From Eledone cirrhosa (lineage: Eukaryota): a stretch of 64,000 bases of DNA. The DNA is taken from positions 16,182,001 to 16,246,000 of the forward strand of contig OZ024746.1 in the NCBI GenBank assembly GCA_964016885.1. Reading direction: 5' to 3'. The notes under the pieces are model-generated. The model saw only the letters and a program-made list of their open reading frames with translations, had not been told where the DNA came from and ran no database searches. This document shows positions 33,402 to 60,079 of the stretch, one piece after another. Numbering within the stretch: the stretch's first letter is position 1; every line of letters begins with the position of its first letter. Both the position numbers and the translations under genes were made by a program.

Positions 33402-33997
33402 GCTAGACGCTGTACGGTTTAATTCGGGATGTTTGTTTACAAACACACTGAGCATTATAATAAATATTCGGTGAATCCATACGTACATATATATATGTGT
33501 GCATGTATGTATATATATATACATACTACTGTCCGTCTGTATACATATATGTATGTACGTATACATACTTATATTTAAGTAACAGCCGTACTAAGAGTGA
33601 GAAATGAAATTTCGTTTCATTTTTTCCGTTTATCGTTTTCGGTACCCCGGCCGATTAACTCACTCGATATGCAAATTAGGCTGCTCAGCCGTTAATATGC
33701 ATAGGGAAAGTTTATACTTTCAGACGTTCAATTATCTGGCAGGAGGGTATACGTTGCTGACGATTGCTAATAAGCTTGAAACTAGTACAGCGTTCCTTTG
33801 TCAGTGTTGAACAAATGAGCAACGATGGTTGCTAGACACTGTACGGCTTAATTCGGGATGTTTGTTTACAAACATACCGAGCATTATAATAAATGTTCGG
33901 TGAATCCATACGTACATATATATATGTGTGTGCATGTATGTATATATATATATACATACTACTGTACGTCTGTATACATATATGTATGTACGTATAC
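33402..33997 (+). mobile_element. Partial tandem (429 bp period) hammerhead-containing repeat, PLE pLTR or non-LTR retrozyme-like
   Basis: gctagac.ctgtacgg.ttaattcgggatg recurs at 33402 and 33831; a hammerhead lies between them. Confidence 0.75.
33751..33793 (+). ncRNA. Type I hammerhead ribozyme (family A)
   Basis: ACGTTG-CTGACGA-TT-GCT-AATA-AGC-TT-GAAA-CTAG-TA^CAGCGT: helix I pairs fully, core intact, palindromic helix III. Confidence 0.85.
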
Positions 33998-35802
33998 ATA
34001 TATATATATATATATATATATATATATATATATATAATCTAATCTGGCCGAGTTTACACTCGCAAATAAGAAGAACCAGGGCCACCCCTAGGAGCATTGG
34101 ATTTGGTGAACTTCATATTTGTTTCAGTTACTGAATACAATCAGGGGGTCACTGCTTTTCCTGAAGGTCAATAGTTCTCTTCAAACTCGAGCATTGTTCT
34201 CAGAACCACTACACCAGTCTTTCAATGTGTGCAGCTGGAACTACTGCCACCCATTGATTTGGCAGGATTTTTTTTTTTTTTCATATATTTATGTCTACAT
34301 GTTTATCTATCTATCTAACTTTTTAAATTGCATTTGTGATAACATTTTACACGTTTTTATTGTATGTAAACTTCCCCCTTTGTATTTGTCCCCTTCTTTT
34401 GTGCCCCTGTGGCTAATAAAGAAACATATCTATCTATCTATCTATCTACATATGTGCGTGTGTATGTGTCAACATGTGAATGTATATTTATATCATCATC
34501 ACCGTTTAACGTCCATTTTTCCATGTTAGCATGCGTTAAACAAATTGTACTGTTGTAAGACAAGCCAGGTCCGATGATGACCATGTCATGCTCATACAGG
34601 ACTAGTTTTGGCTTGGTTTCTACTGCTGGTTGCCCTTCCTAATGCTAACAATATTTACAGTGTCTGCTGGGTGCTTTTTGTCGTGGCACCTATATGACCA
34701 CTTCACAGTGTGGGCTGGGCATTTTTTGTTGTGTTACCCACACAACCACATTATAGTGTGGTCATGTAGGTAACAGTTCATCTCCTCCCAACTGTGATAG
34801 ATGTTTTGACATAATACACTGGGTGTTTCTACTTTGTTGTTGATATTAATATTAACCAGGCATGAACTCCTCTGAAACAACATTACAACACTCTATAAAC
34901 TAAAGAATTATAAACCAATCGGAATATAAACTTACCACCCTCTCTTCCCTATTTTATGTCTGAGAAATAGGCGAAAATCCAAACCCCATTTATAAACCTA
35001 GACAGCTAATCAACACATTGTTTAGATGGCATATATAAGTCCTCCTCCTCCTCCTTCTTCTTCTTCTTCTTCTTCTTCTTCTTCTTCTTCTTCTTCTTCT
35101 TCTTCTTCTTCTTCAAGTGTTTTTTATTCAATCCAGGTATGTCAAAACGTTTCAATAGAATACAAACAAACAGTATATATATATGTATCCCAGTACAACC
35201 TGTCTCATGGTCAGGTCGTTGGCGACTAAACTGGCAACCCCATCAAGGTTTCTTGGTGAGGAGGGTGACTTTGGACATCCTGCAGGACTAAAAACAAAAC
35301 CTGTCAAAGGGCAAAGGAGCTCTTAAGAGTCAATGGCCATCCAAAATCACCGGGATAGATGACCCCTTAGCCTTTGTCAAGGCAGAATTCTAGGAGAAGG
35401 AAAACTCTGATATAACACCTGCAACCCTGATGGTATCCAATGATGTTGACTTGTTCTTCTTTTTGGTAAATATCATCTTGGTTAAGAGAGTGGGACTGGC
35501 TTTGTGCAGTGCCTTTGCTCACTATAAAAGCTTCATGGCACAGGCATTGCTTTATATCTGGAGATCTCTCTGCACTTGTCGTCACATGGTACCATGGGCC
35601 CAGCACTATGTGTCAATAATTGTCACAAGTGTAGTGTTTGTACCAGAGTTTTCAAGTCGCTGGCTGGACTACAAAGTCACACTCGTTCAGCGCATCGGTA
35701 GGGGTTCTCCTACATGGATATAAAGTAGTGGCCGTACTCGAAAACGAGTTGGCAGCCACCATATATATATATATGTATAGAAGTGGATCCTCAGCTCGGA
35801 AT

Positions 35803-35854
35803 GCCATTCCGAGCTGAGGATCCGCTAAGGTGAAACAATTGTTCTCGGTATGGT
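35803..35854 (+). ncRNA. Type I hammerhead ribozyme (family B)
   Basis: GCCATTCCGAG-CTGAGGA-T-CC-GCTAA-GG-T-GAAA-CAATTG-TT^CTCGGTATGGT. Confidence 0.8.
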
Positions 35855-36108
35855 GAACTAACTGTTGTGTAACTACTTCTACCTAACTCGTCCCATGGAC
35901 TGAGTGCTCTACCACTACGGATATTACCTTCCAGTGTTCCACCACTATATCTATATATACAAGAATGAGACATGGTCATCTGATCAATCTTGCCTCAAGT
36001 GGGGCTATTCCCATCTAACCCATGCTAGCATGGAAGATAGACGTTAAACGATGATGATGTATATATATAAAATGAAAAAATGTGCTGGAGGGGTGCTGGA
36101 GTTTCTCT

Positions 36109-36420
36109 CTAATAATTATTGAAGCAAGCCATCCCACTGACAGCATTGCTGCAGGAGATAGCGAGGCTAAGACACTGGAATAACCAAGTACCCTCACAGG
36201 CATCACTTGGTAACTTGGTAAGACAAGCTACCAACAATGACAAGAATCTCATTGTCAACAACTCAGCTCTTCCAAATGTCTCAGACGCTATAGGCTGAAA
36301 AAAAAAAAAGTTTGTCAATGATTCCTGGTATTTTAGAATTTTGTTTACTCAGTATGGATGCAGCGACCTTCACCTTCACCACAGAAACAGTTATTTTCTT
36401 GACAAGCAAGTGGCTTGTTG
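36109..36420 (-). mobile_element. CRE-like non-LTR retrotransposon 3' end (restriction-like endonuclease C-terminus)
   Basis: KYQESLTNFFFFQPIASETFG…FL…EGTWLFQCLSLAISCSNAVS resembles the KY…FxPIAxETxG…WLFQRLSxAIxRGNA motif. Confidence 0.7.
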
Positions 36421-57230: not shown

Positions 57231-57599
57231 CGCAATGCAGGAAACTGACCATTAATTTTACCACTTCTGTTTAAACTAACACCAAAAACTAGCAGAATCA
57301 TGCCATTCTCTGCCTTTTAAGTGATCTTTGCTAATTTTCAAAGGCTTTACACCCTTCCCCATAACCCCCATTCTTAAAATAATAATGGTGTTCTTGTTGT
57401 TATTGTTATATTATTGTTGTTAATGTCATTATTGTTGTTGCTGTAGTTGTTGTAGTCATCAATGAGCCTTCTTTTGTATAAGAGAGTAGTTATGGTCATT
57501 CTGTCTGGCAAGTGGCGCTATATAACAGACTAATTGCTGAAAGTCACGTGACGGGGGGGGCTTTATGAGGGAGCTATTGTGTCGCTAACGGTGTATGGG

Positions 57600-59065
57600 A
57601 TTATATATATAGGCTGTGTGTATATATATATATATATATATAGGTTGGGTATATATGTGTGTGTATATATATATATATATATAGGCTATGTGTATATATA
57701 TATATATATATATATATATATATATAGGTTGGGTATATATGTGTGTGTATATATATATATATATATAGGTTGTGTGTATATATATATATATATATATATA
57801 GGTTGTGTGTATATGTGTGTGTATATATATATAGGTTGTGTGTATATGTGTTTATATATATATAGGTTGGGTGTATATGGGTGTATATACATATATATAG
57901 GTTGTGTGTATATGGGTGTATATATAGGTTGTGTGTATAAGTGTGTATATATAGGTTGTGTGTATATGTGTGTATATATAGGTTGTGTGTATATGTGTGT
58001 ATATATATATATAGGTTGTGTGTATATGTGTGTGTATATATATATATAGGTTGTGTGTATATGTGTGTGTATATATATATATAGGTTGTGTGTATATGTG
58101 TGTATATATATATATATAGATTGTGTGTATATGTGTGTATATATATATATATATATATAGGTTGTGTGTATATGTGTGTATATATATATATATATAGGTT
58201 GTGTGTATATGTGTGTGTATATATATATATATATATAGGTTGTGTGTGTGTATGTGTGCATATATATAGGTTGTGTATATGTGTTTATATATATATATGT
58301 AGGTTGTGTTTATATATAGGTTGTGTGTGTATATATATATATCATCATTTATATATATATATATATATATATATATATATGTATATATATATGTATATAT
58401 ATATATATGTATATGTATATATATATATGTATATGTATATATATATGTATATGTATATATATATATGTATATGTATATATATATAGATGTATATATATAT
58501 ATGTATATATATATGTATATATATATATATGTATATATATATATCTGTATATATATACATATATATATATATATATAGATGTATATATATATATGAATAT
58601 ATATATATATGTATGTATGTATGTATGTATGTATGTATGTATATATATATATATATATATATATATATATGTGTGTGTACTGTGTATAAGGTTATGTATG
58701 CATGTTTGTGTGTATGTGTTTATATATATGTGCGCGTGTGTTTGTGTTTTGGTATCTATGAATGTGTGAATCTCTGTCTATCAATGTATCTGTGTTTACA
58801 TCTGTGTACACATGCATGTGTACTTGTGTGTATATGTACATGTGTGTATATGTCCATGTGTACATGTGTGTATATGTACGTGTGTGTATATGTACGTGTG
58901 TGTATATGTACGTGTGTGTATATGTACATGTGTGTATATGTCCATGTGTACTTGTGTGTATATGTACGTGTGTGTATATGTACATGTGTGTATATGTACA
59001 TGTGTGTATATGTATATATACATGTGTGTATATGTACATGTGTGTATATGTACATGTGTGTATAT
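57600..59065. repeat. TA/TG compound micro- and minisatellites
   Basis: ataggttgtgtgtatatgtgtgt and 18-bp gtgtgtatatgtacatgt units. Confidence 0.93.
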
Positions 59066-59904
59066 TCATGACTATTTGTTTATGGTTTTAAAATATTTGG
59101 GTATATACAAATACCAACACAGATACCATTCAGGTATGTCACACACCTCCCCCACCGCATCCTCACACACTCACCCCCCACCCCACACTCAACCATCGAA
59201 AAACACATCCCCTCCCCACACACCTCACACCCCACTCACCCCTACCCCCACATCACACCCCACGCTCAAAACTATCCAAACACACATCCCCCTCTCAACA
59301 CCCCACCCCACACACACCTCACGCCAAACACCACCCCACCCCACACTCAACCATCCAAGCACACATACCCCTCTCAACACCCCACCCCACACACACACCT
59401 CACGCCAAACACCACCCCACCTCACACTCAACCATCCAAACACCCCCCCCCCTCTAAACACCCCACCCACACACACCTCACGCCAAACACCACCCCACAC
59501 TCAACCATCCAAACACATCCCCTCTCAACACCCCCTCACACTCACCTCACACCCACTCACCTCACCCATCCACCCCATCCACCCAGTCTGATGTAAATAA
59601 ACAACATATGACTTAGCTACAAGACCTATAAAACTGTAAACATGGAACCAAGGACATGTATATTAGTGTATACATCAGTTTATACAGTATGTATATAAAA
59701 ATATATGTATGTGAGCATCCATGATAGAGGCTCAGATGCCATGCTTTGCAGCATAGAGTTACGTCCCTTTATGGTATGAGTTCAAATCCCGCCAAGGTTA
59801 ACTTTGCCTTTCATCCTTACCGTGTCGATAAAATAAAGTACCAGTAATGTACTGAGTAATTGGTGGCCTTGTGTCAAAAGTAGAAACATATATATATATA
59901 TATG

Positions 59905-60079
59905 TGTGTCTGATGGTAGCTAAGGTGCTTCCATAGGCGGTATGCCAGTTGAGCACTTCAGTGAGAGAATATGCTCCAAAATCATTAGACGTGTCCGTCG
60001 AACCTGTGGGTCCAGAATCAGACAGATCCACACAATGATCGCGTCTCGAGCTGTCTGCCAGGGAAACAATTGTAACACA
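59905..60079 (+). ncRNA. Core-damaged hammerhead with ~140-nt helix II insertion
   Basis: TGTGT-CTGA…TGGTAG…CTGCCA-GG-GAAA-CAATTG-TA^ACACA. Confidence 0.5.

Follow-up and report, generated by a model that had tools for sequence, protein, structure and literature searches.

Hammerhead motifs with a variable 10.1/11.1 position in a candidate retrozyme and at the ends of putative Hydra-clade Penelope-like elements in a 64-kb stretch of the Eledone cirrhosa genome

The analyzed window is a 64,000-nucleotide stretch of the Eledone cirrhosa genome (assembly GCA_964016885.1, contig OZ024746.1, positions 16,182,001 to 16,246,000). It contains two calcium-binding EGF-like exons on the plus strand, at about position 1279 and at 54252-54400 (the second is recognized as Pfam EGF_CA), which suggest that the region is intronic; the plus-strand hammerheads may be sense-oriented within the introns of a host gene. 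Nine repeat families with hammerhead ribozyme motifs, half-sites or hammerhead-derived folds (A to I; Table 1) are represented in the window. The first position of helix II (10.1/11.1) is mismatched with an intact core in four of these families (A to D), mismatched with a changed core in family F, and paired in the remaining four. We consider it very probable that these are type I hammerhead folds located at the 3' ends of truncated Hydra-clade Penelope-like elements (PLEs; families B, C, and D) and in a likely retrozyme (family A), which would cut the element RNA as dimers joined through helix III, and that position 10.1/11.1 is only weakly constrained. A preliminary description of the window had listed eight motifs and two half-sites; the letters at all eight places are as described, and genome similarity searches identified a repeat family for every one of them.

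Hammerhead families of the window

Motifs were detected by a relaxed type I descriptor with 10.1/11.1 left free, which was run on the window and on a genome sample of 800 kb (80 evenly spaced 10-kb stretches from contigs C1-C6; the assembly comprises 3.0 Gb). In the window, the descriptor found three motifs, and 30 block shuffles (1-kb blocks) gave 0.17 on average; in the sample, it found 52, and five shuffles gave 0, 0, 1, 1, and 1. Since the matches in both far exceed those in shuffled DNA, the motifs are real; however, they do not form the cluster that was initially proposed, as their density is 4.7 per 100 kb in the window versus 6.5 in the sample, or 5.1 when one 11-copy array is subtracted. 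Extrapolated from the sample, the copy numbers are about 52,000 for family A (14 copies found), 34,000 for E (9), 11,000 for B (3), and 7,500 for F (2); no copies of C and D occurred there.

The family searches produced 1306, 1284, 1233, 1356, 2954, 129, and 164 first-look candidates, of which 40 were scored and 25-30 loci fetched in each case; states at 10.1/11.1 were counted after removal of duplicate loci. Most copies of families A to D were selected by their resemblance to the window copy, so the family counts are biased towards the state of the window, while 14 copies of A and three of B came from the unbiased sample. With this bias, U·U is found in 75 of 79 copies of A (C·A in two others), 56 of 57 copies of B, and 33 of 37 copies of C, and A·A in 26 of 30 copies of D, as the preliminary description had read from single copies. 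The mismatch is thus a family-wide state in A to D and not decay of individual copies, the explanation that holds for the minimal motifs of family E described below. All core letters are kept in these four families, with only N7 differing between subfamilies (it is polymorphic in A, B, and D). The characterization of the motifs as PLE-type type I hammerheads stands for A to D; the palindromic helix III is confirmed for A, B, D, E, and F, and family C has a 3-bp hairpin in its place.

Family A is arranged in tandems of a 429-bp unit (2.8 copies, GC content of 37%) with one type I hammerhead per unit, and inverted copies are frequent. The copy at 33751 has a private A-to-T change at position 33765 that breaks the next pair of helix II; at positions 33764 and 33777, no variant was seen among the rows listed for contigs of three sequencing runs that cover family A, which is a weak indication. 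When folded as a circle, the cut-to-cut monomer has a free energy of -129 kcal/mol (z = -7.3 against 40 shuffles). The non-coding 429-bp tandems, the GC content, and the circle fold fit a retrozyme of the non-LTR type (lacking long terminal repeats), and family A is likely a non-autonomous element of this type. The covariation check that had been suggested for the motifs gave a positive result for A and its relatives: in an alignment of 11 hand-picked rows, 10 of them distinct, both sides change in nine of 12 pairs, a count that none of 500 shuffles reached. Pairing amounts to 89% in register compared with 13-41% in slid controls, and 10.1/11.1 is the sole pair that is mostly unpaired (eight of 10 rows). 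At this position, homologs that share the geometry of A have U·U, C·A, G-C, or A-U; they include a C·A subfamily (L201 and L108) and a sister with G-C (L224 and L241). A homologous hammerhead with A-U recurs in every 310-bp unit of another retrozyme, an array that comprises no fewer than 11 units (locus L250, contig C3, 190000001-190010000). Loci L231 and L256 contain tandems with units of about 525 bp, in which the hammerhead has C·A and a long helix II.

In family B, the 3' end is fixed and the 5' end varies between copies. Its longer copies contain pieces of a reverse transcriptase (RT), a linker, and a GIY-YIG endonuclease in this order, ending about 165 nt before the hammerhead; one RT-linker-GIY-YIG frame was found upstream at 19 loci, some of them repeat fetches of the same copy. 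The encoded protein contains DKT and a CxCx5C linker and has no CCHH motif, and the copies are too short to extend to the RWK position near the N-terminus. Protein searches gave 396 matches, with 41-55% identity among the 120 listed; homologs are 623-756 aa long, and two of them (P0001 and P0002) have both RWK and DK-T. These motifs match the marks of the Hydra clade given in section 11 of PMC8557442 (C-terminal GIY-YIG, no CCHH, CxCx5C, DKT, RWK, and (TA)n flanks; the published works are cited here from excerpts), and family B is, judging from the motifs, a Hydra-clade PLE. An assignment to the Neptune or Nematis type was considered first and rejected, since it needs CX2-5CxxC and CCHH, whereas B has the CxCx5C linker and no CCHH.

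The hammerhead of family C lies about 450 nt behind a frame that is 35-50% identical to that of B in two distinct copies (L062 and L074), and the hammerhead of D lies about 570 nt behind an endonuclease 30% identical to that of B, with upstream DNA common to four copies; a search for the upstream part of D matched other repeats only. Because the upstream frames of C and D resemble those of B, the three are, on the evidence of these frames, mutually related elements and not the unrelated families that had been described. (TA)n adjoins the B, C, and D insertions in the flanks inspected, and the fixed 3' ends at (TA)n, variable 5' ends, and inverted joins are consistent with the layout of PLEs, for which one-sided tails and inverted 5' pieces have been described (PMC8557442). 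The helices of all three families pair, and within-family variation is too low for covariation; some copies of C carry a second U after A9. In the window copy of D, stem I is cut to 3 bp by a 64-nt insertion (48898-48961). This insertion sits 4 nt past the predicted cut site, with TAAA duplicated, and its repeat tail, which recurs reversed near 39805-39840, presumably resembles the tail of a short interspersed element. Elsewhere in the genome, Hydra-type pieces occur in about 20 of the 80 sampled stretches, Penelope/Poseidon-like RTs at L073, L252, and L256, and RT and endonuclease pieces that we take to be Naiad-like at L016.

The two minimal motifs at 51547 and 52987 were initially read as having A·A. 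They belong to one family (E), in which G-C prevails: among 74 copies, the states are G-C in 35, G·U in 21, A·C in seven, A-U in five, A·A in one, and others in five, and both window copies are decayed. The family is characterized by an extra A after A9 (72 of 74 copies) and a palindromic helix III (15.2-16.2); no convincing coding frame was found upstream, where the search matched other repeats.

The motif at 59905 proved to be a chimeric join. Its supposed first core box, CTGATGG, is the reverse complement of the family F 3' tail, which lies directly downstream in 15 of 52 F ends, and the homologous box is CCGTCGA at 59995-60001 (scores of 71 and 97 in alignments to relatives versus shuffled maxima of 42 and 37). 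Of 57 boxes, counted with repeat fetches, 47 are CCGTCGA and none is CTGANGA; the 10.1/11.1 state is A·C in 49 of 67 copies and A·G in the window copy, and the palindrome and stem I are kept, as is most of helix II. Among the relatives of F, L320 has CTGATGA with G-C behind a Hydra-type endonuclease, L084 has CTGAAGA with A·G, and L040 has CCGAGGA (L320 and L040 are single copies), the stem I changes between L040 and family F being compensatory. Taken in this order, these related elements appear to document a stepwise erosion of the core from CTGATGA through CTGAAGA and CCGAGGA to CCGTCGA. U4C is reported as a weak natural variant (PMC3088659), and our literature search found no report of U4C and A6U together in a high-copy family. 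Rescue of F in trans by B through their common helix III was considered and rejected, since the stem I strands mismatch.

The remaining three families are paired. Of the two half-sites noted before, the one near 25500 is indeed half of a family C motif; the one near 8866 belongs to family G, in which G10.1-C11.1 is present in three of four complete copies and G·U in one, so it does not share the mismatch. Family G has 30 matches of at least 40 nt in the 800-kb sample and was seen at L128 and L301; further families with U3-A8 occur in the census described below, one of them with U·U. Families H and I had been overlooked, the former inside and the latter just beyond the interval considered (33751-60079). 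Position 10.1/11.1 is paired in all 22 copies of H (A-U in 17, G·U in four, G-C in one) and all 27 copies of I (A-U in 26, G·U in one). Both form inverted pairs (38350-39780 and 60500-60790) with a hammerhead near each outer end, a hairpin-like layout as in truncated PLE insertions; no coding frame was found for them in the window.

Table 1. Hammerhead-related features of the window, with positions counted from its first nucleotide.
Feature	Position	Strand	Remarks
Family G, half-site (3' half)	8852-8913	+	U3-A8 covariant hammerhead; G10.1-C11.1; long helix III
Family C, half-site (3' half)	25494-25529	-	
Family A, retrozyme-like tandem repeat	33400-34010	+	About 1.4 units of 429 bp; longest ATG frame 68 aa
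Family A, type I hammerhead	33751-33793	+	Core at 33757; U33764·U33777; palindrome ACTAGT; predicted cut after 33787
Family B, inverted 5' duplication	35782-35807	-	Forms a hairpin with the core box of the 35809 copy
Family B, hammerhead at the 3' end of a putative Hydra-clade PLE	35809-35848	+	U35821·U35831; 2-bp helix II; palindrome ACAATTGT
Family H, hammerhead	38443-38499	-	10.1/11.1 paired, G·U in this copy; site 38493 (-)
Family H, hammerhead, inverted partner of 38443-38499	39688-39743	+	Site 39693 (+)
Family C, inverted 3' half	39872-39921	-	
Family C, hammerhead at the 3' end of a putative Hydra-clade PLE	39928-40015	+	U39941·U39996; 56 nt between core boxes
Family A, hammerhead of a second subfamily	40632-40674	-	A-U replacing U·G in stem I; N7 = U; fold intact; U·U
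Family D, hammerhead	48789-48899	+	A48801·A48882; 82 nt between core boxes; palindrome ACATATGT
Family E, decayed copy of a minimal PLE-type hammerhead	51547-51582	+	Family has extra A and G10.1-C11.1
Family E, second decayed copy	52988-53023	+	11.1 and U16.1 changed
Family F, 3' tail, inverted join	59905-59960	-	Yields the spurious CTGATGG on the plus strand
Family F, hammerhead-derived fold	59991-60078	+	Box CCGTCGA (U4C, A6U) at 59995-60001; palindrome ACAATTGT
Family I, hammerhead	60529-60595	-	A10.1-U11.1; palindrome ATGCGCAT; site 60589 (-)
Family I, hammerhead, inverted partner of 60529-60595	60707-60767	+	Site 60713 (+)

The window is otherwise rich in microsatellites and tandem arrays, and the output of the repeat finder is dominated by microsatellites. 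Long minisatellite arrays with units of 59, 28, 56, and 5/10 bp occupy 1358-5319, 19133-22433, and 26850-30065. A 54-bp tandem array (16085-18806; 50 copies with 98% matches) has CTGATGA followed by a short hairpin in most units, with no GAAA box or helix III seen, and an inverted pair of related repeats at 44435 (minus strand) and 45404 (plus strand) contains CTGATGA but no matching second core box in the 80 nt read.

Extent of the mismatch and its effect on detection

A census of 227 descriptor matches from the window and 280 loci yielded 21 clusters with at least two members and 18 singletons. Ten of the 21 clusters are mismatched (U·U in six, A·G in two, A·A and C·A in one each), eight are paired, and three are mixed; when the five sought clusters are left aside, the remaining 16 comprise six mismatched, seven paired, and three mixed. 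Together with the G-C and A-U homologs of family A, these numbers do not support the proposed lineage-level set of variant ribozymes: the mismatch at 10.1/11.1 is not universal, either to the families of the window or to the genome. It was also considered whether the mismatch is a hallmark of every Hydra-type element; this was rejected because of G-C motifs behind Hydra-type endonucleases at L320, L056, and L249. Nor is U·U new, as it is already tabulated for Hydra-clade elements in the available parts of PMC8557442. What remains as possibly novel are the A·A and A·G states, the helix II inserts of 56-96 nt, and the fixed U4C/A6U core of family F. A literature search that covered few subscription papers found neither a hammerhead survey in cephalopods, nor A·A or A·G described as the state of a whole family, nor PLE hammerheads described with long inserts in helix II.

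The expectation that standard searches miss these motifs was borne out for Rfam and for strict descriptors. The Rfam HH9 model gave 15.8 and 20.4 bits on two copies of A, compared with a cut-off of 52, and Rfam gave no hammerhead match on family B; 19 of 74 scored matches to RF00163 exceeded the cut-off, and they represent a G-C family. A scan of the whole window contained no hammerhead among the 150 of 376 Rfam matches listed, which are microsatellite matches. The expectation does not extend to the published PLE descriptor (min-HHR), which permits an extra N10 and an extra N11 (PMC4209133). In our own rendering, it found no motifs in the window, owing to its length limits for helix III and loop 2 and the decay of the E copies rather than to the mismatch. 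After widening of helix III and loop 2, family A (at 40668), C, D, and B (with a 2-bp helix II) were found, only with the extra N10/N11; none of A to D was found without them. Thus, Rfam cut-offs and the published length limits together miss families estimated at 10,000-50,000 copies each, and hammerhead counts in such genomes are too low.

Proposed dimer cleavage and alternative explanations

Under the proposed mechanism, two copies in tandem or in a read-through transcript would pair through the palindromic helix III, and the paired hammerheads would cut after position 17 and free the element RNA, as in published relatives; by the same analogy, the monomer of family A may circularize after cutting. 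The calculated energies agree in direction with pairing between molecules: helix III is unfavorable as a hairpin (+6.0 kcal/mol for A, +2.4 for B and D, and +0.4 for C) and favorable as an intermolecular duplex (-4.8 for A, -6.4 for B, and -7.0 for D; range -4.8 to -8.4). Position 10.1/11.1 would be weakly constrained, with the helix above it remaining paired, so that each master lineage could fix a state of its own (U·U, A·A, A·G, C·A, A-U, or G-C). Stacking of the mismatch on the A9·G12 pair is likely, and cleavage would likely be slowed by the mismatch without being abolished. Most of the window copies are insertions that have been truncated or have decayed, and their density is that of the background; many of the copies are unlikely to act, since B is held in an inverted hairpin, D has the insertion in stem I, and E and F are decayed or changed.

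Several points weigh against this interpretation. The z-score of the A monomer is owed in part to an internal TA/CA microsatellite, and the relatedness of the 10 hand-picked rows inflates the covariation count. For families A and E to I, no link to a coding frame was found. Pfam gave no meaningful match for any of three pieces of the B protein, two homologs also being unrecognized, and the Hydra-clade call is based on motifs rather than on an RT tree with named Hydra elements. One copy of C (L073) lies behind a Penelope/Poseidon-like RT instead of a Hydra-type frame. Finally, family B may have low activity, given that its helix II comprises only 2 bp above the mismatch and that position 17 is a U.

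The alternative that survives best is that the mismatched motifs are inactive relics, whose masters lost cleavage and kept the fold as a terminal signal for the RT or the endonuclease. Family F, with CCGTCGA in 47 of 57 boxes and never CTGANGA, is still abundant; moreover, Naiad PLEs have spread without canonical hammerheads (excerpts of PMC8557442), and published PLE hammerheads cleave poorly in vitro (excerpts of PMC4209133). However, the core letters of A to D are all kept except for the variation of N7 between subfamilies, and U·U cleaves in published tests, both in the axolotl HHR_Amex2 and as the most active mispair named by Perreault et al.; we consider inactive relics unlikely as an account of the mismatched motifs. 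A broader proposal concerns an unreported natural series in which Hydra-type hammerheads tolerate any combination at 10.1/11.1 and structured helix II inserts of 56-96 nt, and in which all three helices of F were kept with compensatory changes while the core went from CUGANGA through CCGAGGA to CCGUCGA. Family F would then either still cleave with a near-dead core or have a fold with a non-catalytic job in retrotransposition; we put this forward as a doubtful but conceivable extension.

According to a second alternative, the host lineage shares a new set of variants, the unpaired 10.1/11.1 having arisen by convergence in unrelated elements, for instance as a means of slowing monomer cleavage or fitting a host factor. 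The mismatch is common here, with six of 16 unsought clusters and 10 of all 21 compared with about three of 56 rows in Fig. S3 of PMC4209133 (parsed from extracted text), and it occurs in both the retrozyme and the PLE ends in four letter combinations. Against convergence, B, C, and D are related, paired families are equally common in the genome, and homologs of A differ at 10.1/11.1. In addition, 14 of 25 Hydra-clade families, from three distant phyla, have U·U, so that the mismatch goes with the clade of the element no less than with the host, which leaves a host-wide set very improbable. A third alternative is that the motifs arose by chance or are ordinary hammerheads that decayed in single copies. 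It applies to 51547 and 52987 as regards their A·A reading and to 59905 as regards its 5' half, and is otherwise scarcely credible, given the 52 matches versus 0-1 in shuffles, the covariation in A and its relatives, and the family-wide states by which it is already refuted for A to D.

Retrozymes that are homologous but differ in their state (U·U, C·A, G-C, or A-U) constitute a natural set for measuring the cost of the 10.1/11.1 pair, and whether PLEs require their hammerheads as catalysts could be tested directly on family F.

Comparison with published systems

Among natural hammerhead variants, Perreault et al. (2011; PMC3088659) described U10.1-U11.1, U3-A8, and U4C, named U·U as the most active mispair with reference to Ruffner 1990, and used a filter that rejected 10.1/11.1 mispairs unless tested; the combination of U4C and A6U seen in family F was not found in the excerpts of that work. 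The PLE consensus of Cervera and de la Pena (2014; PMC4209133) has an extra base after A9 and G10.1-C11.1. Family E is similar to their min-HHR in the extra base between 9 and 10.1, in G10.1-C11.1, and in the arrangement GAAAN-palindrome-NUH, whereas the helix III of A to D (6-9 nt) and the long loop 2 inserts of C and D fall outside the descriptor. In Fig. S3 of the same paper, as parsed from extracted text, the rows of Hydra and D. willistoni have U·U, and one row has AGAAA.

The closest counterparts of B, C, and D are the Hydra-clade PLEs of Craig et al. (2021; PMC8557442), which have a C-terminal GIY-YIG without CCHH, CxCx5C, and DKT as in B, (TA)n flanks, and a 3' hammerhead with a palindromic or near-palindromic helix III. 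File S2 of that study contains 26 Hydra-clade rows for 25 families, 14 with U after CUGANGA and U before GAAA; one further row has U·C, and one plant PLE has C·A. The elements with U·U come from Hydra, a sea cucumber, and a copepod, and the excerpts term these hammerheads canonical, giving the mismatch without comment. The families described here differ in that A·A and A·G are absent from that table, that the listed loops are 3-10 nt compared with 56 nt (C) and 82 nt (D) between the core boxes, and that B has a 2-bp helix II.

Family A most resembles the axolotl HHR_Amex2 (PMC7229834), which has about 60,000 copies and U·U at the base of helix II, and which cleaves to 22% as a monomer and to a greater extent as a dimer, according to the available text. 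Both are non-coding tandems with a predicted self-paired circle, a type I fold, U·U, and a 2-bp palindromic helix III, the GC content of A being 37%. Non-LTR retrozymes are reported in the same text to give circular RNAs of about 170-400 nt from repeats of 150-450 bp, compared with the 429-bp unit of A. Family A further differs from published retrozymes in its frequent inverted copies and in having homologs with four 10.1/11.1 states in one genome. Retrozymes are reported to derive from PLE ends (excerpts of bioRxiv 10.64898/2026.07.22.740005).

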